This document shows positions 926-32,718 of a DNA stretch of 42,350 nt, in pieces. Numbering within the stretch: position 1 is the stretch's first letter; every line of letters starts with the position of its first letter. The stretch spans positions 1-42,350 of the IMG/VR virus record IMGVR_UViG_2636415673_000001; one strand, 5' to 3'. Both the position numbers and the translations under genes were made by a program. This DNA comes from a virus (lineage: Duplodnaviria > Heunggongvirae > Uroviricota > Caudoviricetes). The notes beneath the pieces are model-generated. The model was not told the DNA's origin, ran no database searches, and worked only from the letters and a program-made list of their open reading frames with translations.

Positions 926-1288
926 ATGTTAAATATATTTGCAAGGTACACCTCGATTGGTGTGCTGAACACACTTATACACTGGGTGGTTTTTGGTGTA
1001 TGTATCTATGCCGCGCATACCAATCAGGCTCTGGCAAACTTCGCAGGTTTCGTTGTGGCTGTGAGTTTTAGCTTCTTCGCGAATGCAAAATTCACATTCA
1101 AAGCATCAACTACAACGATGCGCTACATGTTATATGTCGGGTTCATGGGAACACTCAGTGCTACTGTTGGATGGGCTGCTGATAGATGCGCACTTCCCCC
1201 GATGATAACTCTTGTCACCTTCTCCGCCATCAGCCTGGTGTGCGGTTTCGTCTATTCAAAGTTCATTGTCTTTAGGGATGCGAAATGA
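926..1288 (+). CDS. gtrA: GtrA, bactoprenol-linked glucose translocase (flippase)
   Basis: 120-aa hydrophobic protein with GtrA-family N-terminus ([13 protein letters not shown]...); first gene of a three-gene operon overlapping gtrB by 4 nt. Confidence 0.85.
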
Positions 1289-2199
1289 AAATTTCTTTAG
1301 TCGTTCCGGTCTTTAACGAAGAGGCCACGATACCTATTTTTTATAAAACCGTGCGCGAATTTGAAGGGCTTCAGCAGCATGAAGTCGAGATAGTCTTCAT
1401 AAACGATGGCAGCAAAGACGCTACAGAATCAATTATCAACGAGCTTGCTGTTGCCGACCCGCTTGTGGTTTCGCTGTCGTTCACACGTAACTTCGGCAAA
1501 GAACCCGCCCTGTTCGCAGGTCTGGACCATGCTACCGGGGAGGCAATTATCCCGATTGACGTTGATCTGCAAGACCCTATCGAAGTTATTCCTTACTTGA
1601 TAGAGAAATGGCAGGCCGGTGCAGATATGGTTCTGGCTAAACGCTCTGACCGCTCCACTGACAGCAGGCTGAAGCGTAAATCTGCTGAGTGGTTCTATAA
1701 ACTTCATAACAAAATCAGCAACCCTAAGATAGAAGAAAATGTTGGCGACTTCCGGCTCATGTCTCGCGAAGTAGTAGAAAACATTAAGCTCATGCCAGAA
1801 CGAAACCTGTTTATGAAGGGTGTGCTGAGCTGGGTTGGTGGTCGAACCGATGTCGTAGAATATGCGCGAGCAGAACGCGTTGCAGGAAGCACAAAGTTCA
1901 ATGGATGGAAGCTCTGGAACTTAGCGCTGGAAGGGATCACTAGCTTTTCTACTTTCCCTTTGCGCATGTGGACTTATATAGGCCTGTTTGTGGCAACCTT
2001 ATCATTCCTTTATGGAGCATGGATGATTGCTGATAAATTGATGTTTGGAAATAGTGTTCCAGGTTACCCTTCTATCATTGTATCAATATTGTTTCTTGGT
2101 GGAGTTCAGTTAATAGGCATAGGAGTTCTTGGAGAGTATATAGGAAGAATTTATGTTGAAGTTAAGCAACGACCAAGATACATTCTAAAGGATAAGTAA
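1285..2199 (+). CDS. gtrB: GtrB, bactoprenol glucosyltransferase (GT2 family)
   Basis: 304 aa; N-terminal GT2 signature (VVPVFNEE...FINDGSKD), C-terminal TM helices; ATGA overlap with gtrA. Confidence 0.9.
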
Positions 2200-2200
2200 A

Positions 2201-3667
2201 ATGACTTTAAATATAAAAAAAACAGCCATATATATCATTGGATTTATATTCTTGACTTTCTTCTACGCCTCGATTTCAAAACAGATTTTGCCAAGTTCGG
2301 ATGCTGTTTCTGGACTTCTTGAGGGTAAGGACATTGCGGACGGAAATTGGACGCTTAGTGGATGGTATCTCTCTACAGTATCATTCTATTTTACAGACAT
2401 AATATGGTACGGGCTTGCTTCAAAGGTATTCTGGTACGGACAGTACCAAGCATACTGCATACCGGCAATTATGTATTCAATGGTTACATTGATGACATTT
2501 TATCTTTCAAAAGAAAGGCTTTCATCGTTATGGGCCATTTCATTTTGCGTTGCGCTGCCTTCTGGGTTTGCAGTATTAAACGTATTAATACCTGTGATAC
2601 ATGTCGGCACATATGTATCCATGTTGTTTTGCTTCATAATGTTAGACAATTTTTCCAAAACAAGATCGTTAATTTCTCTATCTCTTTATATTTTAGTGTT
2701 AGTTCTAGCTTGTTTCAGTGATGACATCATAAAGCTACTCATTATTGCACCAGTAGCAATATCATCAGTGGTTTTTATAGTAAAAACCAAAAGCCAAAAA
2801 AATCTGATCATACTAGTTGCAACTATATTTGCATATGTTGCATCAAAAATTATGACCATGTACGCAAGAGCTCATAACTGGTACATTTTGCCAGGCGTTC
2901 CAGATCCAACATTTGTTGCATTTGATGATATCCTGAATAATTTATACTTATTCGTAAAAGGATTCCTCCTATACAGTGGAGCTTTCTTCTTTGGCAAATC
3001 ACCTTCTGATATTACAGCGCTTATTTCTGTTTTTTGTTTTGTTGTAATGATTTTACTTCTTATATTAGTTGCAATGTCAGTAAAGGAAATATTCAAAACC
3101 TCCATGGTCAATATGGCTATATGTATAGCTTGTATTATAATGATACCAGCATACCTTGCAAGTAACCGTCCAATAGATGAATGGACTATAAGATATATCG
3201 TTCCATTTTTTATACTAGCACCTGTTGTTATTGGCAGATCTAACAACTCCAGAGGGTGGAAATTCATCGCATTAGGGGTTGTTACAACATTTATTCTCTT
3301 TTGTTCTATTTATATGCATGAAAAAAAAGACAATTCTAATGATATTATAAATCAGATAAAACACACTGTAAGGCAGAATAACCTCACAAACGGGTATGCA
3401 TCTTTCTGGTTTGCTTCATCAGCAAGTATAGATGGAGACATATCAATTGCTCCGATTGATGTAAACCGAGGTTTGAATATACTTGCATGCAATAAATGGT
3501 TGTCAAAAAACTATTGGTATGAGCGCGGAGGAAATTTCATAATTACAGATGATGAGGTTATGAGAAATATAACAATTAAAGAGATTGGTAATCCATCAAA
3601 GGTTATTGACGTCGGAGATAAGAAGATTTTTGTTTACGATAAAAACATTACATTCAACTGCAATTAA
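2201..3667 (+). CDS. GtrC-type serotype-specific O-antigen modifying glycosyltransferase (polytopic membrane protein)
   Basis: 488 aa, many TM segments, strongly AT-rich; third position of a gtrAB operon between attachment site and tailspike as in P22/Shigella serotype-converting phages. Confidence 0.7.
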   Translation: MTLNIKKTAIYIIGFIFLTFFYASISKQILPSSDAVSGLLEGKDIADGNWTLSGWYLSTVSFYFTDIIWYGLASKVFWYGQYQAYCIPAIMYSMVTLMTFYLSKERLSSLWAISFCVALPSGFAVLNVLIPVIHVGTYVSMLFCFIMLDNFSKTRSLISLSLYILVLVLACFSDDIIKLLIIAPVAISSVVFIVKTKSQKNLIILVATIFAYVASKIMTMYARAHNWYILPGVPDPTFVAFDDILNNLYLFVKGFLLYSGAFFFGKSPSDITALISVFCFVVMILLLILVAMSVKEIFKTSMVNMAICIACIIMIPAYLASNRPIDEWTIRYIVPFFILAPVVIGRSNNSRGWKFIALGVVTTFILFCSIYMHEKKDNSNDIINQIKHTVRQNNLTNGYASFWFASSASIDGDISIAPIDVNRGLNILACNKWLSKNYWYERGGNFIITDDEVMRNITIKEIGNPSKVIDVGDKKIFVYDKNITFNCN

Positions 3668-3698: not shown

Positions 3699-5462
3699 TC
3701 ATACACTTGTACCATCCGCCCTCTTCCATTCAGATGATACTGTGTTATACCATATTGGAAGACCTAGCGTTGTATCATAATACATCTGCCCACTGACTGG
3801 TGCTGTAGGGCGCTGCGCAGTCGGTCCACGGTTTTGATAAGTCGTCTGAGTATCATTAACACCTAGACAAGCTATAATACGGTTTTTGCGTTCTTCCGAT
3901 GTATTAAGGTAAATCTTGGTTGTCATATCGCTATCGAAAGAAACGCCATTGATGGTTATGCCGTTACAGTTATCGCCGGGGTCTGTGATCCCAAGTGGTT
4001 GCACGTAGTAACCCCCCCGGATATAAGATGTACCCATAGCACCGCCGATGACAGATACCTCTTTGCAATTTACCAACGATAGACCGCCAGTCTTATTTCC
4101 GTTGTATATATTATTCGACAAAGAGCATTGTTCAGCATTTTCCAACACCATGCCAAACTCACCACAGTAGGTGATAGTGTTTCCTGTAAACGTCAGGTTT
4201 CTAGCGCCTTTAATATTAATTCCACGGGCGTTGTTTGGTCTCCCAGCACTAATAATGTTACCGCTGATGGTAGCGTAAGCTAGACTCTCCATATCAAAAG
4301 CAGTACCGTCGATGGCATCGAAAACGCTATTTGAAATTATAACCGGATAACCCGCGAATTGGTCTGTTCCGCCAACCCCACCAAGAGTTGTACGTGTCCT
4401 TACCGCGTAATCTCCAACAAACATCGTACATTGGCTGATATATAAATCGGCGGTATCCCATACGTCAATCGGAGAGTTAGAACTGAAACACATAAGAAAC
4501 TTAGGTGATTCGCTGATGAACTCCACAGTATTTAAATCCGCACGCCCCAAGAATGGACTACCCCAACGTTCGCACCGGAAGAAGTTAACGTAATGGTAGT
4601 TGTTCATAGTAGTTTGTGCGTTATAGAAAAACACCCGATCAAACTCTAAGTTCTGGACATGACGACAAACAATCCAGTTAATCAGCACGTCGGATGATAT
4701 GACTACATCTCGGAATATGCCACCCTGTTTCCACTGACTAGCAGCCGGGCCAGACCCTGTAAGGGTAAACATAGTGAAGGTTGAATCAGAACCTAGATAT
4801 TTAATCTCTGGATTTTTTGCGTTACCAATAATTTCATATTTTGCTGGAAGCTCAATGTCTCTGGTCTTCATTCCATATATGCCAGAACCTTTCAAGTGAA
4901 TTTTTCTTGCGCCTGAAGCGAATGCCTTCTGAAAGGCTATGCTATTATCTGTTATTCCAGAATCGTCTTTGCCACCAAAGTCTTCCAAAAATACAAAATC
5001 ATCCAGCTTTTCTTGTACATTCCTGAAGACAGCACCATCAACAACAGATGGTAATCCATACTTATACTTTACTGTTTCAGGGAATGCCCCGCTTGCAAAC
5101 TCTCCCTCTAGCTCATGCCGGAACTGGTCCGGGTCATACTTGATAATGTTTGGATAGTAGAACTGCTGTGTGCCATATGCGTCATACACAGCCATTGAAT
5201 GTCCCTGTACGGTAACGAACTTTGCAATCTGTCCGTTATATACCGGATAACCAGCAGCGTTAATGATGATTGGTTGCGAAACAGGAACGTGAGAGCCGTC
5301 TTCATTCTCCATATAAACCTGAATCTGGTTTTCTGGATTTACCGGGTCAGTATCAATTTTACCGATATAAATTTTTCCATTGGCAACCGCTTTAAAAGAA
5401 CGCGCCATAGTGAAGAGTTGCGAAGGCATACTCACTACAACATTGGCTGTAATGTCTGTCAT
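3699..5462 (-). CDS. Tailspike protein: P22 gp9-type head-binding N-terminal domain fused to a different receptor-binding/beta-helix domain
   Basis: First ~110 aa match remembered P22 tailspike N-terminus ([34 protein letters not shown]...); remainder unrelated to the P22 endorhamnosidase domain. Confidence 0.85.
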
Positions 5463-5518
5463 TTAATTTGCTCCAGATACAAGAAATCGCCGCAGCATGG
5501 CCACGGTGAATTTTGGGC

Positions 5519-5543
5519 ATAAAAAAACCCAGCCGAAGCTGGG
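5519..5543 (-). terminator. Intrinsic terminator upstream of tailspike gene
   Basis: cccagc-cgaa-gctggg hairpin followed on the minus strand by a 7-U run. Confidence 0.6.
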
Positions 5544-5595
5544 TCGTTGCGTTGGTTATCTGTCAGTAGTTATGTACTGGCTGAAGGATTTGTAC

Positions 5596-5616
5596 AAAAA
5601 AACCACCTGACGGTGG
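5596..5616 (-). terminator. Intrinsic terminator (tandem with 5519..5543)
   Basis: ccacc-tgac-ggtgg hairpin flanked by A7 (minus-strand U-run); also a T5 tract on the plus side. Confidence 0.5.
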
Positions 5617-5709
5617 GTTAATTTTTGCATTTACCTGGGCCATATTGACTACTTATAAAATGAGTTCAATATTTAATCGCCCAATAACGGGTGTATGTTG
5701 AGGTATATC

Positions 5710-5889
5710 ATGGCGAAAAAACCAGGTGAAAACACAGGAAAAAACGGCGGAATATACCAAGAAGTTGGCCCACGCGGCGGTAAGAAAGACAATTTTGCCA
5801 CCGTCAAGGACAACGAAAGGCTTCCACCAACAACAAAGCCAGGTCATGGCTGGGTATTGGATAAGCGAACTCCAGACAGCAAAAAGTAA
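5710..5889 (+). CDS. Small Gly/Lys-rich protein (resembles YjzC-type small stress proteins; family not verified)
   Basis: 59-aa ORF with GAGGT RBS 5 nt upstream, candidate ttgact -35 at 5645..5650, own terminator at 5896..5918. Confidence 0.55.
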   Translation: MAKKPGENTGKNGGIYQEVGPRGGKKDNFATVKDNERLPPTTKPGHGWVLDKRTPDSKK

Positions 5890-5895
5890 TAATCA

Positions 5896-5918
5896 AGCCG
5901 GTTCACTCCGGCTTTTTG
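5896..5918 (+). terminator. Intrinsic terminator after 5710..5889
   Basis: agccgg-ttcact-ccggct hairpin followed by TTTTT. Confidence 0.7.
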
Positions 5919-6268
5919 ATATGTCGCTCGCAGAACTCAACAAGCCTGCTCATTAAGTAGCAGTAAGTCTCATTAGCTCTTCCTGGTTCAACATCAACAC
6001 CGACCCTTGAGCAGATATCGAATGCCATGTGAGCGCACTCATGGGCAATAGTAGATAGTTTGCCATTGAACACGCCTATCACATGCAAAACACCATTCTC
6101 GCTGCTCATTGTATGAGACGCTCCGTTGGCATCCGAGTCCTGCACGTCCACACCAAGTTTTTGATGCAGGCGTTGCCATTCTGGAAAGTCTCTACAAAAC
6201 ACAATTGTACCGCTCTCAAAGAGCGGAACGAGCATCTTTGGTACGTTTCCAATGTTAACTTTTTTCAT
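5903..6268 (-). CDS. Small HExxH-motif protein (putative zincin-like metallopeptidase), paralog of 20924..21313
   Basis: 121 aa; HECAH motif; shares IGVF...HECAH...NETYCY...R.V blocks with the 129-aa protein at 20924..21313. Confidence 0.6.
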
Positions 6269-6298
6269 GGTATCCTGCGTAAAACTAAGGAGGTTGGT

Positions 6299-6793
6299 GT
6301 GTCTGATTCTATGAGTTACGCTGTGCTAGTTGCCGCAACTCTATTTCTGGGGATAGGGTTGCAGATTGCGTGGTTCTTTTTTTCTAGTTTTATTAAACGT
6401 AAAAGAATTGAATCAAGGATATCTGAGATTTCTATTGCTATAGGGAAAAATGCTGAAAATCCAGAGAATGAGGCCTGCGCACTGAATTACCTTAAAGAAA
6501 AGTTTTCCCCTGAAAAATTTGAAAACAGAATTACTGATGCTCTTGGATTGGTAATATCAGTAATTCATATGCCACTAAGTTTACTGATAACAGTGTGGTA
6601 CTTCGCCATGATCGCCGGAAGAATATTTGGTTTCATGAATATAGATCCTGTAGTTCTTTGGGTTCCAATGATACTGCAATTGTTGTTAAGCGTTGCTATC
6701 TTTATTTTTTCTGTTTTTATAAAAATTGTCTTTGGAAGATACCCCGGAGAAGCGAAGGGATTTAATAAAGAATTCATAAAAACTATAAAATAA
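6299..6793 (+). CDS. Polytopic inner-membrane protein, putative SieA-like superinfection exclusion protein
   Basis: AAGGAGG RBS 5 nt before GTG 6299 (alternative ATG 6311); several TM helices; AT-rich; sits between gp16 and tailspike where P22 carries sieA/immI. Confidence 0.45.
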
Positions 6794-6815
6794 ATGCCGT
6801 CCCTGGCTTACAGTG

Positions 6816-8657
6816 CTACTGCCGGGTAGCTTCGTTAACTAAGAGCGGGCGCACGGCAGTAGCCGCCTGATTTAGCGCTCTTTCATAGGCTGGTGTTCCT
6901 GCTTTGGTGTTTGCCAAACGTAAGAGAGCATTCCTTGCTGCTTTTGACTCATACAAGCGCATCATTGCACCGAAACCAGCCTCAAGCCCCATTGATACGC
7001 CAAGAGTCGCAGTTGCGCCAATCGTCCTTATCCTGTTGGCTTGCGATTGCCCCGTCTGAGTTACTACATTTGCGGTGTCTGACCTTGCTGTTTGCTGTAG
7101 AACTTCATGAAGAGCATCAAGCTCTTTCATGTGCTTTCCAGAAAAAATAGTGTTGTAAATTTCACCGCCTGACTGAGATTTCAGCTTATTAACTTCAGTG
7201 ATGAACTTGGCTGGAGAGTCACCTGCCTTTTCCGCTATTTTGCTGACGTAAGCTGCACGCATAGCATCTTTCCCTTTATCATCCAATGCGCTCCAGATTC
7301 GTTTCACGTCAGATGGTTTTCTACTTAATACAACGGTATTTATAAGTTCAGGACTGGCTTCACTGCTTGCCTTGTTGAGCTTGTTAGCAATGTTTTTATT
7401 AAGCACCTTATTATAAACGTTTGCATAATCGGAATTTGCTTTAAGGTATTTTGCTGCGTCTGATGCACCTAGGTTTTTAGCAACTGCGTTACGAAGGTCT
7501 TTTGACATTGCATTCTCTACCATATTGGTAGCTGCTTTTGCCTGGTTGGGGAAGACCATAGCATCTCCCTGAACATTAGATCTAAATGCTGTTCTGTGCT
7601 GACGCAAGAGATCAAACGTAACATCCAAATCAGTTGCAGGGTTTGCTAATTCTTCACGTAGGTTACGCAAGGATGTAAGCAGGCTTTGATTAGCAGACGT
7701 CCCAAGCCGTTCCTGTCTTGCGATCGCTGTATTCAGAGCATTCATGGTGTTTGTGGTATCAACTGCGGCATTACCCATTTTATTGGTGACGTCATTGATA
7801 ACAGCGCCAGCGGCATCCTTCCGCCCCCTTAACGTGGTGATCAGAGATTTCACCACATCATCAGGGTTGTACTCACCAAAACGGTCAAAATAATTGCTTA
7901 CCAGCTTACTACGCGTTGCATATTGCTCCGCTCTCTTTGAGCCTGTCCCGAGCAAAGCCCCCTCGGCATCCTGAGTAAGGCCGCGAGTGAAAGCATTTTT
8001 CGGCGGGATAACATCAGATGTCATTGGTGTCACGCCCATCGATTCTGATGTGGCAATTTTCTTCGCCACTTCTGGCGCAATATCACCTTTTATAGCCGTT
8101 ATTCCACGCCCTATTCCCTTTGCTGCTGCGGAAAGAACCCCCTGAGCGGCAAGGTTAACTCCGGCATTTTTGGCTGCATTTTGTGCGAAATCGCCTTTCT
8201 GATTTGCGGCCTCTGCCAGTGATCCAATAGCCATGCTTCCTGCCGTTCCAACTCCTGGAACTAAATACCCACCAATTGTTTCACCGGCTTGCGCGTAGGG
8301 GTCTGTCGGTCTGTCTACTGGACGATAAACATCATCCAAAACCTTGGGTCCACCAAGCCCCTGACTGATTGCATTAATCAGGCTTGCGCCGCCCTGCAAT
8401 ACGTCAAATGGTATGTTTACCAGACCACGACCTGCCTGTTCTGCAATTTGCCCTGCACTTTGACCACCAGTGAGCCAATCGCCAGCTTGTTGCATCAATG
8501 AAGGTTCTTCACGTGCTGGTTCATTATTGGCCTGATTAACTGTTTGTTGCTGAACAGCCTGACCAGCAAAATACTCATCAATGGCGGTGCCAATATCTTC
8601 CGTGCTCGTACCATCAGGGAAGGTAAATGTCTTACCGTTTGCAGTTACTTTCATCAT
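6816..8657 (-). CDS. Ejection (internal virion) protein gp16
   Basis: 613 aa; matches P22 gp16 in size and order (after gp20). Confidence 0.85.
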
Positions 8658-20745: not shown

Positions 20746-20940
20746 TTACTTAGCTCCTTCCTGCTTGCCTGTGTTTGATGTCGTTTCAGCAGCAGCCCCA
20801 GAGCAATTAATGCTACCCGCAACACCATATCCATAACCAGTCTTGAAGAAATTGTTGCCAGTAAATTGGTTAACAATCTTCCCGCAGCACGGGCAGCGTT
20901 GGCATTGGCAATAAGGGGATTGATTATTCCAGTGATACAT
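20746..20940 (-). CDS. Small Cys-rich hypothetical protein
   Basis: 64 aa from internal ATG; CQCQRCPCCGK cluster; overlaps neighbour start. Confidence 0.35.
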   Translation of the reverse strand: MYHWNNQSPYCQCQRCPCCGKIVNQFTGNNFFKTGYGYGVAGSINCSGAAAETTSNTGKQEGAK

Positions 20941-21313
20941 CTTGTTTCTCCTGAATGAATGGCAGGAAGTGATTAACCATCCTGTCCAGCATGTAACAGT
21001 ACGTCTCGTTGGCATCTTCAGGGCTTGTCGTCACGCCGACATCAGAGCAAACGTAAAAGCAGACGTGGGCGCACTCATGAACGAGCGTAGCGATCTGCTG
21101 ATCGAATACTCCAATCAGATAGCATCGCTCACCCGTATCAGTGTTTTCATAGTTGCTTGCAAGCCCAAGATTGAATGGCTTCTCATCCCCGCTGCCGCCA
21201 AGGAATTTATCAGCGTGCTGAAACTGTTCTCTGGTTGTTGCGAGGTAGACGTGTGCACTTTGAAACAGCGGAATGGTGAACGCCGGGAGTTTGTGCCATT
21301 TGGCCTTAGCCAT
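20924..21313 (-). CDS. Small HExxH-motif protein, paralog of 5903..6268
   Basis: 129 aa; HECAH motif and shared blocks with 5903..6268. Confidence 0.6.
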   Translation of the reverse strand: MAKAKWHKLPAFTIPLFQSAHVYLATTREQFQHADKFLGGSGDEKPFNLGLASNYENTDTGERCYLIGVFDQQIATLVHECAHVCFYVCSDVGVTTSPEDANETYCYMLDRMVNHFLPFIQEKQDVSLE

Positions 21314-21923: not shown

Positions 21924-22159
21924 AACCTCGTCTTGTTGTTCGCCATAGATTCAGTGGCAGGCGGTGACGAGTCCGCTTTTCGGGAGCTACCCTAGCCACT
22001 GCTTGATTCTATCCGATGTCTTTCCATCAGTCCGCCACCACAAAGAATCTTTTTTGCCATAAGGCTGGAGGTTCATCTTTCAGTGGCTGCCAGTGTTATT
22101 TCCCCACTTACTGGCTTGGGTTGTTTCGTGGTACTGCTGTTAATTAGTGAGTCCTGGGA

Positions 22160-22645
22160 TTATTTCAGTTCGTTACCAGGAATTTCTTTTAGCTCTTTCA
22201 AATGACAACGATTGAGGCTAAACCACTCCCCGTGCGACCTATAGTTGTAATATTTTTGGTGCAATTTGGTTTCAAGCTCTCTATCGGCCGGAATCTTTGC
22301 AATTAGATTTAGCTTCCCACCACTCATGCGAGATATCTCTGAAATTCGTTTATTAACCCTGCGACTAAACCCTATTTTTGTTAGCCCACTATCTTCAGCA
22401 TGCAGAACGTACACATATGATTTTTGCGAAGCACTGGGTGCGACTTTGTTGTAATTAATCATGTCAAACATGAAGCCTTGCTTTAGCAAAGTTTCAAAAA
22501 AGATAGAATTAACACACCCATTCCTTCTCAGCTCTGCACTTAGCTTGTCAATTTCCTCTATGATGTCGCCAGACCCCTTTCCACTTATAAGAAAATCTTG
22601 GTACATGCGACCAATTCTTGAGGTAATTTCAACAAAGTTATTCAT
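22160..22645 (-). CDS. T5orf172 / GIY-YIG-like domain protein (putative nuclease), AT-rich moron
   Basis: 161 aa; motif YVYVLHAEDSGLTKIGFSRRVNKRISEI...GEWF typical of T5orf172-type GIY-YIG domains; AAGGT RBS. Confidence 0.6.
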   Translation of the reverse strand: MNNFVEITSRIGRMYQDFLISGKGSGDIIEEIDKLSAELRRNGCVNSIFFETLLKQGFMFDMINYNKVAPSASQKSYVYVLHAEDSGLTKIGFSRRVNKRISEISRMSGGKLNLIAKIPADRELETKLHQKYYNYRSHGEWFSLNRCHLKELKEIPGNELK

Positions 22646-24479: not shown

Positions 24480-24555
24480 TGGTGCTGGTTAACGGACTTG
24501 AACCGCTACCCATTCGCTTACAAGGCGACTGCTCTACCATTGGAGCTAAACCAGC
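24480..24555 (-). tRNA. tRNA-Thr (anticodon UGU), phage-borne
   Basis: 76 nt folding by hand into a cloverleaf: 7-bp acceptor GCTGGTT/AACCAGC, D-stem GCTC/GAGC, anticodon loop CTTGTAA, T-loop TTCAAGT, encoded CCA; one G-A mismatch at top of anticodon stem. Confidence 0.65.
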
Positions 24556-24560
24556 ATATT

Positions 24561-24635
24561 TGGCGGGACAGCGTGGACTCGAACCACGATAAGAAGGTTA
24601 ACAGCCTTCCGTAATGACCTTTATACGACTGACCC
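24561..24635 (-). tRNA. tRNA-like gene, anticodon GUU (Asn); possibly degenerate
   Basis: 75 nt; anticodon arm GAAGG-CTGTTAA-CCTTC and T-arm CGTGG-TTCGAGT-CCACG perfect, encoded CCA, discriminator G; U-U mismatches in acceptor and D stems. Confidence 0.5.
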
Positions 24636-31946: not shown

Positions 31947-32058
31947 ATGCCCTCCATAGTAACCATGAAACAATAATACGATATGTACTTTTAGAATGCA
32001 AACAAAAAAATACATCTTGTGCATGGATGGTTTTAGTACAGAGCGTAATAATAAGGGT
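31947..32058. promoter_or_regulatory. oR / pR / pRM immunity control region
   Basis: 112-bp divergent intergenic region; repeated gtac/tttag-containing imperfect palindromes shared with the pL region; operators not resolved. Confidence 0.6.
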
Positions 32059-32718
32059 ATGAAAATGAAATGGTATGAACTGGCTAGATCCAGAATGAAA
32101 GAACTCGGCATAACTCAAGAGAAGTTAGCTGAAGAGCTTGGTATGACGCAGGGTGGAATTGGTCACTGGTTGCGCGGATCTCGTCATCCATCTCTTGACG
32201 AGATTGGTGTGGTGTTTAAATACCTTGGTATTGATAACGTCTCATTCAACCACGACGGTACATTTTCACCTGTTGGCGAATACTCATCTGCCCCCGTTAA
32301 AAAACAATATGAGTACCCTGTTTTTTCTCATGTTCAGGCCGGGATGTTCTCGCCTGAGCTTAGAACCTTTACCAAAGGTGATGCGGAGAGATGGGTCAGC
32401 ACAACCAAAAAAGCCAGTGATTGTGCGTTCTGGCTTGAAGTTGAAGGTAATTCCATGACCGCGCCAACAGGATCCAAGCCAAGCTTTCCTGACGGGATGT
32501 TAATTCTCGTTGACCCTGAGCAGGCTGTTGAGCCAGGTGATTTCTGCATAGCCAGACTTGGTGGTGACGAGTTTACCTTCAAGAAACTGATCAGGGATAG
32601 CGGTCAGGTGTTCCTACAGCCACTAAACCCGCAATATCCAATGATTCCATGCAATGATAGCTGTTCCGTAGTAGGGAAAGTTATCGCCAGCCAGTGGCCT
32701 GAAGAGACATTTAGTTAA
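32059..32718 (+). CDS. cI: CI repressor: non-lambda N-terminal HTH domain fused to lambda-type S24 autoprotease C-terminal domain
   Basis: C-terminal ~130 aa match lambda cI ([20 protein letters not shown]...), N-terminal ~90 aa do not; start 32059 or 32065. Confidence 0.9.

Follow-up and report, generated by a model that had tools for sequence, protein, structure and literature searches.

The sieA-hkcC-orf59a locus of an Escherichia coli LSC52 prophage: very probably a reduced P22-type ant moron in a state already described

Genes and features between the gene 16 and gene 9 homologs

The DNA analysed here, called the window throughout, is a stretch of 42,350 nucleotides from a prophage of Escherichia coli LSC52 that resides between ybhB and ybhC. 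The locus at positions 5519-6793 is bordered by homologs of genes 16 and 9, and the virion gene set around it is P22-like. Three open reading frames are present at the locus (Table 1), and each carries the RefSeq label 'hypothetical protein'. A preliminary description of this DNA had listed these frames, together with a strong ribosome-binding site before the membrane protein gene, divergent starts about 30 bp apart, the standing of the HExxH protein as the second of two paralogs and, for the small Gly/Lys-rich gene, a promoter-like ttgact and terminator of its own. All of these features are borne out, and the spacing between the divergent starts is exactly 30 bp (6269-6298).

Table 1. Coordinates of the features at the locus, its flanking genes and the hkcC paralog. 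Positions are those of the window.
Feature	Positions	Strand	Remarks
Tailspike gene (gene 9 homolog)	3699-5462	-	
tANT	5526-5545	-	Leftover of deleted ant operon; late-operon direction, just before the tailspike gene
ant stump	5563-5579	-	Final 17 nt including stop codon, 3 mismatches to P22; from P22 alignment
mnt stump	5580-5610	+	Final 31 nt (LKDLYKKTT, then stop); from P22 and HK620 alignment
tMNT	5603-5616		Hairpin across the mnt stop codon; T-run on the minus strand
Putative orf59a promoter	5645-5673	+	TTGACT, 17-nt spacer, AATATT; 9 of 12 consensus positions
Inverted repeat (5'-UTR hairpin) GCCCAATAACGGGT	5679-5692	+	Past the -10 element, before the orf59a ribosome-binding site
orf59a (HkcD)	5710-5889	+	59-aa Gly/Lys-rich protein; phrog_3202, E 7e-31
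tORF59A	5895-5914		Hairpin common to convergent orf59a and hkcC, across the hkcC stop codon
hkcC	5903-6268	-	121 aa; HExxH at residues 76-80 plus E100; late-operon strand
Putative PsieA	6238-6268	+	Within the hkcC 5' end; P22 annotation at L001 4159-4189
sieA ribosome-binding site	6287-6293	+	AAGGAGG, 5 nt before GTG; common to P22 sieA and HK620 hkcB
sieA	6299-6793	+	Type A superinfection-exclusion protein by similarity to P22 SieA; 164 aa, GTG start
Gene 16 homolog	6816-8654	-	
hkcC paralog	20924-21313	-	129 aa; flanked by the lysis genes and the small terminase gene

Sequence comparison identifies the region as the P22 span that separates the DNA-injection gene from the tailspike gene, carrying P22's own sieA, hkcC and orf59a. 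Window positions 5580-6813 match P22 at 97.2% DNA identity, and the encoded proteins, compared by tblastn, are 92.1% (SieA), 98.3% (orf59a) and 100% (hkcC) identical to those of P22. Position, gene order and orientation are likewise those of P22, as are the putative PsieA, the ribosome-binding site and the terminator between orf59a and hkcC. The name 'ant moron' for this region comes from Villafane et al. (2008), who recorded sieA, hkcC and 59a in P22.

The 164-aa membrane protein, which the preliminary description had rightly called SieA-like, is a type A SieA as judged from its sequence. It aligns with P22 SieA over 164/164 residues, of which 13 differ, and it matches the 'SieA-like' family phrog_7745 with an E-value of 1.7e-108 over profile positions 1-164 of 164. 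Topology prediction and comparison with P22 SieA had been proposed as checks on this assignment. A Kyte-Doolittle 19-residue scan, which is a crude method, finds three hydrophobic regions (residues ~9-32, 81-113 and 114-150), and three transmembrane segments have been predicted for P22 SieA (PMC10883804). The C-terminal region matches the motif FxRYPxEAxxFNK, a conserved cytoplasmic SieA motif near residues 145-157 (PMC10883804). Its location, with the gene 16 homolog on one side and the gene 9 homolog on the other, is also the one reported for type A and type B sieA genes in P22-like prophages of E. coli (PMC10883804). The mechanism published for SieA in 2024 is a block of DNA injection at the inner membrane (PMC10883804), and a role in exclusion would be expected of a type A SieA in the LSC52 prophage.

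The three genes do not form one transcription unit: sieA and orf59a are separate plus-strand units, and hkcC lies on the late-operon strand. Expression of sieA would start from a putative promoter of its own and use a strong ribosome-binding site. The putative PsieA interval has zero differences from P22, and it was not detected by a consensus promoter scan.

We considered whether sieA, hkcC and orf59a might be one three-component exclusion or defence system. They do adjoin in P22, in the LSC52 prophage and in several other E. coli prophages, and the order SieA-HkcC-Orf59a-tailspike recurs in 3/80 IMG/VR loci. However, full exclusion by sieA alone is obtained from a functional single-copy construct in which P22 sieA is preceded by only 85 bp of upstream sequence (PMC10883804). 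In coliphage HK620, an unrelated gene, hkcB, stands in place of sieA, and the break falls directly past the shared GTG start codon. Furthermore, tail-gene clusters of siphoviruses carry hkcC and orf59a without sieA, 69 of 80 P22-like loci have hkcC without a detectable sieA, and PADLOC defence models match none of the three proteins. A single system is therefore highly improbable, and we rejected it on the grounds of exclusion by sieA alone (PMC10883804) and of the mosaic boundaries.

The mnt/ant deletion scar and the terminators

The locus differs from that of P22 by the absence of about 1.43 kb of immI sequence. A P22-type ancestor with the array sieA-hkcC-orf59a-mnt-arc-sar-ant lost this segment, which corresponds to L001 2074-3500 of the P22 locus. 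Alignment to the annotated P22 record shows that arc, sar and the Pmnt/Pant operators are gone completely and that mnt and ant have been cut down to short stumps. On one side of the junction, window positions 5494-5579 align to L001 1988-2073 at 94.2% identity, and the P22 ant coding sequence ends at L001 2057. On the other side, the alignment from window position 5580 onward starts at L001 3501, within the P22 mnt coding sequence (L001 3280-3531). The junction has no long homology and is a few bases off a simple join of the two P22 sequences. P22 also has an extra 109 bp before gene 9 that are flanked by direct repeats, whereas the prophage keeps a single copy of the repeat.

The same scar is found in HK620, which likewise has an E. 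coli host and the order hkcB-hkcC-'HkcD'-tMNT-tANT-gene 9 (AF335538; Clark et al. 2001). The two junctions are identical base by base, and the sequences agree at 97.9% over 238 bp. HK620 and the LSC52 prophage also share the retained tMNT and tANT, hkcC and the orf59a/hkcC terminator. They differ in the gene at the sieA position, hkcB, and in orf59a, which has a premature TAA at codon 18 in HK620 but is intact in LSC52. The 2001 GenBank record of HK620 already labels the ant and mnt pieces as remnants, and the mnt/ant deletion scar of this phage is discussed in PMC2629481. Other E. coli prophages with the order sieA-hkcC-orf59a-mnt (e.g. EC931 and FDAARGOS_1251) are about 98.3% identical in DNA sequence over sieA, hkcC and orf59a and also lack arc and ant, but they keep an intact Arc-family (mnt) gene and are about 250 bp longer here than the LSC52 prophage. 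This type resembles the 'mnt only' moron of ST64T, ST104 and Para1 (PMC2629481). Among 5,426 complete E. coli genomes, the scar and sieA occur in one unbroken match only in LSC52.

The preliminary description had correctly reported that antirepressor, Mnt and Arc are missing. With the P22 proteins as queries, tblastn found no homolog of Ant, Arc or Mnt anywhere in the window at E < 0.01, and none of the three is named in the RefSeq annotation of the window. There was no match to sar RNA or to any other Rfam family between 5400 and 6900, and the sar interval (L001 2960-3029) falls inside the deletion. Because mnt, arc and ant are absent, neither the locus nor the rest of the prophage has the immI antirepressor circuit. 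A prophage without Ant, Mnt and Arc would keep immunity by repressor only, accompanied by SieA exclusion and gtr O-antigen modification.

Three hairpins are found towards the tailspike end of the locus, with fold z-scores from -2.8 to -4.0. In total, seven terminator-like sites were counted on both strands, compared with 1.6 +/- 1.2 in shuffled sequences. The first hairpin, tANT, consists of GACCCAGCTTCGGCTGGGTT followed by TTTTT (-14.5 kcal/mol, z -2.8), aligns with the P22 ant terminator, and is labelled 'associated with remnant of P22 ant gene; tANT' in HK620. The second, tMNT, folds on the minus strand at -12.9 kcal/mol (z -3.3) and carries the HK620 label 'associated with remnant of P22 mnt gene; tMNT'. 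The third, tORF59A, folds on the plus strand at -12.6 kcal/mol (z -4.0), and its site is annotated as the 'mnt terminator' in P22 and as a 'bidirectional terminator; tORF59A' in HK620.

These structures bear on an earlier interpretation of the region, in which the immI locus had been rebuilt with three genes other than those of P22 as a new island, insulated from the late operon by three hairpins. The locus does have three open reading frames, hairpins and promoter-like sites, and it lacks mnt, arc and ant. Nevertheless, the three genes are those of P22, as their DNA identity indicates, and the change is a deletion with identifiable mnt and ant stumps from the P22 array, one that HK620 carries as the same scar. 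Of the proposed insulation, the hairpins themselves are real but the insulating role is not borne out: all three lie on the tailspike side of hkcC, two are the leftover mnt-associated and ant terminators, and the gap between gene 16 and sieA (6790-6830) has no hairpin and folds no better than shuffled sequences. The alignment to P22 and HK620 refutes a newly built insulated island, to which we assign next to no probability.

We consider it very probable that the locus is the ant moron (immI/sieA region) of a P22-like E. coli prophage in a reduced, previously described state. It is an ordinary locus, since it holds P22's own genes and lost mnt-arc-ant through a deletion already described in HK620. 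Its modules had been sequenced and annotated before in P22 and HK620, and nothing contradicts the identification. The locus adds little beyond one more variant of a region that is in rapid flux among P22-like phages. The practical gain is in annotation, in that one RefSeq 'hypothetical protein' can take the name SieA and two can be tied to P22 hkcC and orf59a.

hkcC and its paralog

The small interest that remains in the locus lies with hkcC and orf59a, which are tightly linked in phages. For hkcC, this interest comes from an invariant site of the metalloprotease type, from the missing annotation in the P22 reference and from the presence of a paralog in the same genome. The predicted protein is 100% identical to that of an unannotated P22 open reading frame (L001 3827-4189, minus strand), so that the gene is present in the P22 reference record without being marked there. 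The two genes differ at just two nucleotides, both of which are synonymous third positions.

HkcC matches the family phrog_1365 over its full length (E 1.4e-39), and 746 cluster representatives are related to it at E <= 0.001. Among 101 relatives with 20-44% identity, invariance is limited to the columns H76, E77, H80 and E100. This small protein carries, in HExxH...E, a conserved signature of metal sites, in which the downstream Glu is predicted to correspond to the third metal ligand of zincin metallopeptidases of the gluzincin type. In thermolysin, the spacing from H146 to E166 is 20 residues, equal to that from H80 to E100 in HkcC. An AlphaFold2 model of HkcC has a mean pLDDT of 88 and a predicted topology of strand-strand-helix-strand-strand-helix-helix.

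The nearest known kind of protein is the SprT-like or small zincin metalloprotease, which likewise has HExxH with a Glu 20 residues past the second His. When a profile built from the 101 relatives was compared with PDB sequences, the best matches were all zinc metalloproteases, and they were weak (myroilysin, E 0.0024). Matches of HkcC in the BFVD library of viral structures include proteins named SprT-like or Metalloprotease. A narrower profile of close relatives matched no PDB sequence, and a comparison of the predicted structure with solved structures gave no significant match. Unlike the SprT-like and zincin families, HkcC matches no Pfam, NCBIfam or PADLOC model. Metallopeptidase models from Pfam and NCBIfam, including SprT-like (PF10263) and Peptidase_M78, gave no match to HkcC at E <= 1, and the NCBIfam search returned chance-level matches only. 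The SprT-like Pfam model was matched weakly by just 2 of the 101 relatives (best E 1e-4). A literature search for 'hkcC' recovered unrelated acronyms only.

The orientation of hkcC is that of genes 16 and 9, and no consensus promoter was found on the minus strand between 5400 and 6900. Only this orientation and the missing promoter signal lead us to class hkcC as a putative late gene. It would be transcribed with the late genes, on the RNA that extends from gene 16 into the tailspike gene. The paralog at 20924-21313 is 35% identical to HkcC (tblastn, E 1.4e-20) and matches phrog_1365 with an E-value of 2.9e-37. A search beside it found no partner resembling orf59a.

orf59a and its linkage to hkcC

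The interest of orf59a lies in its conservation across classes of Proteobacteria. Homologs in Gamma- and Alphaproteobacteria are 66-80% identical to it and share 25 invariant residues. The P22 protein has the same residue at 58/59 positions, and the codons that differ comprise three synonymous changes and one non-synonymous change. The Pfam family YjzC (PF14168) matches orf59a at 19.4 bits (E 0.0013), below its gathering threshold of 25 bits. Similarly weak matches to YjzC were obtained for 7 of 11 homologs (best E 0.001), none of which reached the cutoff. A profile of the homologs matched no PDB sequence, and the on-topic result of a literature search for 'orf59a' was the SieA paper only.

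In P22, orf59a belongs to the mnt operon, as its distal gene. In the LSC52 prophage, the gene would rely on its own conserved TTGACT/AATATT element, which is presumably its promoter. Seven diverged copies were compared, drawn from P22-like phages, siphovirus prophages, Proteus and Xenorhabdus. Across these copies, AATATTT at the -10-like position never varies, and most also keep TTGAC(T) at the -35-like position, whereas the flanks differ. The stem of the downstream inverted repeat is retained in the diverged copies, with a double change from C-G to T-A in Proteus, Xenorhabdus and one further copy (L162); this comparison covers seven sequences only and is weak evidence.

We also weighed whether hkcC, orf59a or both might be non-functional leftovers rather than genes. 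The P22 reference records leave hkcC without annotation, and HK620 orf59a is described only as something that 'may encode' a protein and contains a premature stop. These observations are outweighed by the many representatives of hkcC, its invariant catalytic-type tetrad, its confident fold prediction and its synonymous-only differences from P22, and by the cross-class identity, invariant residues and conserved promoter-like element of orf59a. It is very unlikely that either gene is a mere remnant.

A different proposal couples hkcC and orf59a functionally, as a cassette of two genes. In all 80 viral loci retrieved through Orf59a, of which about 73 are near-identical P22-like sequences, a convergent hkcC adjoins orf59a. 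Three siphovirus prophages, found in Rosenbergiella, in Klebsiella and in a metagenome, also have the pair, as do Proteus and Xenorhabdus. The pair outlasts the loss of mnt-arc-ant in the window, in HK620 and in those siphoviruses. The invariance of the H-E-H-E set among the HkcC relatives is a further point in favour of coupling. There is some chance, albeit a small one, that such a convergent cassette outlasts mnt-arc-ant loss while moving between the late operons of podoviruses and siphoviruses.

Several observations speak against coupling, however. In 7 of 9 bacterial loci with Orf59a homologs (66-77% identity), there is no hkcC within 5 kb. No hkcC was found beside Orf59a homologs outside Enterobacterales, even with the HMMER filters off, and the idea of an obligate pair is thereby weakened. 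Conversely, 11 of 80 P22-like loci have hkcC without orf59a, HK620 is viable despite the premature stop in its orf59a, and the hkcC paralog of the window is without an orf59a-type partner. The linkage could also reflect hitch-hiking in a mobile moron. Functional coupling of the two genes is thus doubtful on balance. One possible form of it is that a late-expressed metalloprotease removes or counteracts a small effector expressed by the prophage, or that it shares the target of this effector.

The bacterial Orf59a homologs that occur without hkcC adjoin ordinary chromosomal genes.

Identity of the locus with the ant moron of P22

The segment between the gene 16 homolog and the tailspike gene (gene 9) is already known: it is the ant moron of phages P22 and HK620 in a deleted state, composed of previously annotated modules. 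Villafane et al. (PMC2629481) gave this name to the whole region between genes 16 and 9, described it as being in rapid flux, and distinguished ten types among sixteen genomes. When positions 5463-6815 were compared with phage genomes by megablast, positions 5580-6813 exhibited 97.2% identity with Salmonella phage P22 and dozens of close relatives. By comparison with the annotated P22 record BK000583, the membrane protein is SieA, with 92.1% identity to P22 SieA across all 164 residues, a GTG start in both, and a match to the PHROGs family phrog_7745 'superinfection exclusion SieA-like' (E 1.7e-108). The 59-aa protein shares 58 of 59 residues with P22 Orf59a, and the HExxH protein, HkcC, is 100% identical to the product of a minus-strand ORF at positions 3827-4189 of the P22 locus (L001), which is not annotated in BK000583. 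These two proteins also match PHROGs (phrog_3202 and phrog_1365). A preliminary description had placed 'three other genes' where P22 carries sieA-mnt-arc-ant, which is incorrect because sieA, hkcC and orf59a are P22's own.

Of the 35 nucleotide differences from P22 across 5580-6813, sieA has 22 (codon differences: 13 non-synonymous, 9 synonymous), orf59a has 4 and hkcC has 2, both synonymous. The excess in sieA points either to faster evolution of the protein or to a recombined allele from E. coli. The window matches the chromosome of E. coli strain LSC52 at 100% identity and spans a complete P22-like prophage that is inserted there between ybhB and ybhC; RefSeq names the products of sieA, hkcC and orf59a 'hypothetical protein' in all three cases.

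The ORFs, promoter-like site, hairpins and 30-bp divergent gap listed in the preliminary description are physically present (see table). An AAGGAGG ribosome-binding site precedes the sieA GTG by 5 nt, and the 30 bp separate the divergent start codons of sieA and hkcC. Scanning for terminator-like sites gave 7 in the region, counting both strands, versus 1.6 +/- 1.2 in shuffles, and the three G+C-rich hairpins have fold z-scores of -2.8 to -4.0.

Features of the locus and related prophage elements (window positions)
Feature	Position	Strand	Remark
Tailspike gene (gene 9)	3699-5462	minus	flank of three-ORF region
37-aa ORF	5497-5610		ends in Mnt C-terminus LKDLYKKTT
G+C-rich hairpin, ant terminator	5526-5545		relic of deleted operon
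G+C-rich hairpin over mnt stop codon	5603-5616		relic of deleted operon
TTGACT-17-AATATT promoter-like element	5645-5673		sequence scan
Hairpin with 4-bp stem (GCCCAATAACGGGT)	5679-5692		between promoter-like element and orf59a ribosome-binding site
orf59a	5710-5889	plus	59-aa ORF
G+C-rich hairpin	5895-5914		terminator common to convergent orf59a and hkcC
hkcC	5903-6268	minus	121-aa ORF with HECAH
sieA	6299-6793	plus	164-aa hydrophobic ORF, GTG start
Gene 16 homolog	6816-8654	minus	other flank of three-ORF region
hkcC paralog	20924-21313	minus (late strand)	129 aa; 35% identity; phrog_1365 like hkcC; HECAH...NE
LexA-family repressor gene	32023-32718

The mnt-arc-ant deletion and its distribution

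Alignment to P22 equates window positions 5494-5579 with L001 1988-2073, and position 5580 onward with L001 3501 onward. The 1,427 bp between these two blocks (L001 2074-3500) are absent from the window. Deleted with them are 221 nt from the start of mnt, the Pmnt/Pant operators, arc, sar, and ant except its last 17 nt, whereas a hairpin is retained beside each of the mnt and ant stumps. The 37-aa ORF spanning the junction is a chance ORF.

Coliphage HK620 carries the same junction base for base (97.9% over 238 bp), and its 2001 GenBank record already labels a 'terminator associated with remnant of P22 ant gene; tANT', a terminator with '...remnant of P22 mnt gene; tMNT', a 'bidirectional terminator; tORF59A', a region that 'may encode hypothetical protein HkcD', and 'hkcC'. 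However, HK620 has hkcB in place of the window's sieA; the ribosome-binding site and GTG are common to both, and the divergence beyond them forms a clean mosaic boundary. In addition, orf59a has a premature TAA in HK620 and is intact in the window. In these alignments, the window combines an HK620-type scar with a P22-type sieA. A further difference from P22 lies upstream of gene 9, where two copies of a ~20-bp direct repeat (GC[A/G]TGGCTACGGTGAATTTT) flank 109 bp in P22 (L001 1866-2008), whereas a single copy is present in the window (compared span 5463-5530) and in HK620, as if the 109 bp had been lost or gained by repeat recombination.

Among 80 IMG/VR loci sampled for a near-identical hkcC, the order SieA-HkcC-Orf59a-tailspike occurs in 3, and HkcC-Orf59a-tailspike with neither sieA nor hkcB detected beside hkcC occurs in 7. 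HK620 is one locus, and the remainder retain mnt/arc/ant in various states. Of 5,426 complete E. coli genomes, LSC52 is the only one in which a single unbroken match contains both scar and sieA; the scar without sieA is present in others, and six other genomes carry sieA-hkcC-orf59a with an intact Arc-family (mnt) gene, without arc or ant.

Immunity, late transcription and exclusion

Searches with P22 Ant, Arc and Mnt by tblastn yielded no match anywhere in the window, the RefSeq annotation of the prophage lists no antirepressor, and sar RNA was not found by Rfam. The prophage does encode a LexA-family repressor, and the proposal of single-layered immunity is borne out. The three hairpins are not the proposed insulators from the late operon: all lie between hkcC and the tailspike gene, and none between gene 16 and sieA. 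The rebuilt-island reading is partly supported: the absence of an immI circuit stands, but neither the different genes nor the insulating hairpins do.

Since gene 16, hkcC and gene 9 share the minus strand, late transcripts can get to the tailspike gene only by passing through the region, where they run antisense to sieA and orf59a. In P22, the Q-type late antiterminator permits read-through of these terminators. Earlier P22 work indicates that the tailspike level is affected by how often late-promoter transcription continues through this region into gene 9 (cited in PMC2629481).

The one characterised gene of the locus is sieA, whose mechanism is published. P22 SieA resides in the inner membrane, has three predicted transmembrane segments, stops DNA injection and potassium release by P22-like phages only, is active in E. 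coli, and suffices by itself for exclusion when a single copy is supplied together with 85 bp of the DNA upstream; in P22-like prophages of E. coli, sieA genes of type A and of type B occur at exactly this position (Leavitt et al. 2024, PMC10883804). The window protein carries the family motif and three hydrophobic segments, in agreement with its initial assignment as SieA-like, and in the 85 bp upstream only two positions are unlike P22. We infer an exclusion function for SieA in the LSC52 prophage.

HkcC, Orf59a and other prophage features

The residual value of the locus resides in improved annotation and in the unstudied genes hkcC and orf59a. HkcC belongs to a large, uncharacterised family: a library of 1.84 billion proteins contains 746 of its cluster representatives at E <= 0.001, and almost all of these are stand-alone proteins of 110-140 aa. 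The only invariant columns in a 101-member alignment (20-44% identity) are H76, E77, H80 and E100, corresponding to HExxH and a Glu 20 residues beyond the second His, which is the spacing of thermolysin-type gluzincins. A confident AlphaFold2 model (pLDDT 88) predicts the order strand-strand-helix-strand-strand, HExxH helix, Glu helix. The best matches of a broad HkcC profile to PDB sequences are all zinc metalloproteases (myroilysin, E 0.0024; BMP1/tolloid, 0.24), 2 of the 101 relatives weakly match Pfam SprT-like, and a Foldseek comparison with viral models gave 28 hits at E <= 0.001, most of them unnamed and a few bearing the label SprT-like or Metalloprotease. HkcC is predicted to be zincin-like, and we place it in no named peptidase family because HkcC itself has no match among Pfam, NCBIfam and PADLOC models and no significant match among solved structures. 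One database protein (P0030) has the C-terminal half of HkcC, at 100% identity, fused to an N-terminal half that is unrelated (Pfam PF04492); it probably is a chimera produced by assembly or gene calling, and it was excluded from the family alignment.

Late co-transcription is the likeliest route of hkcC expression, since a sequence scan found no minus-strand consensus promoter upstream and the gene is on the late-operon strand. Its paralog sits between the lysis genes and the small terminase gene, with no orf59a-like neighbour.

Orf59a scores 19.4 bits against Pfam YjzC, below the 25-bit threshold, as do 7 of 11 homologs. It is strikingly conserved, unusually so for a 59-aa protein: homologs in Proteus, Xenorhabdus and the seven bacterial genomes named below retain 66-80% identity, and 25 residues are invariant. 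In P22, orf59a lies downstream of mnt, ahead of a terminator annotated there as the mnt terminator, whereas Pmnt is deleted from the window. The promoter-like element is retained upstream of diverged orf59a copies, with AATATTT invariant, and so is the 4-bp-stem hairpin, whose stem exhibits a compensatory C-G to T-A double change and could be a 5'-UTR structure or an operator. This retention supports the earlier suggestion that orf59a has its own promoter and terminator.

A convergent hkcC lies beside orf59a in all 80 viral loci fetched with Orf59a, ~73 of them near-identical P22-like sequences. The convergent pair (5710-6268), with its shared terminator, recurs (loci L005, L006, L008, L162, L169 and L170) in Proteus, in Xenorhabdus, and in three siphovirus prophages (Rosenbergiella, Klebsiella and a metagenome) between tail-tube and tape-measure genes. 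In one siphovirus locus (L162) the full order HkcC, Orf59a, Mnt-like, Ant adjoins the major tail gene, and the ant moron therefore moves between phage types and unrelated late operons. However, the linkage is not obligate. No hkcC was found within 5 kb of the Orf59a homolog in 7 of 9 bacterial genome loci, whose chromosomal surroundings are ordinary. These seven (L171-L177; 66-77% identity) come from Psychrobacter, Vibrio, Bowmanella, Ruegeria, Pseudooceanicola and two metagenome-assembled genomes, and some neighbours, in translations read by eye, resemble ribosomal protein L20, a GNAT acetyltransferase and a phosphoribosyltransferase. Conversely, 11 of 80 P22-like loci keep hkcC without orf59a, and orf59a is broken in HK620. 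Functional coupling of the two genes is conceivable, if rather unlikely.

Several other features of the prophage were observed. A gtrA/gtrB (yfdG/yfdH-like) pair precedes a 488-aa polytopic membrane protein annotated 'hypothetical' (926-3667, plus strand), which by position would be a GtrC-type O-antigen-modifying enzyme; the receptor-binding part of the adjacent tailspike differs from that of P22. An Rfam int-alpA RNA match (45.1 bits versus a gathering score of 35.8), two tRNA genes (Thr, Asn) between the late antiterminator and holin genes, and a GIY-YIG nuclease gene between the lysis and terminase genes are located at 21940-22002, 24480-24635 and 22160-22645, all on the minus strand.
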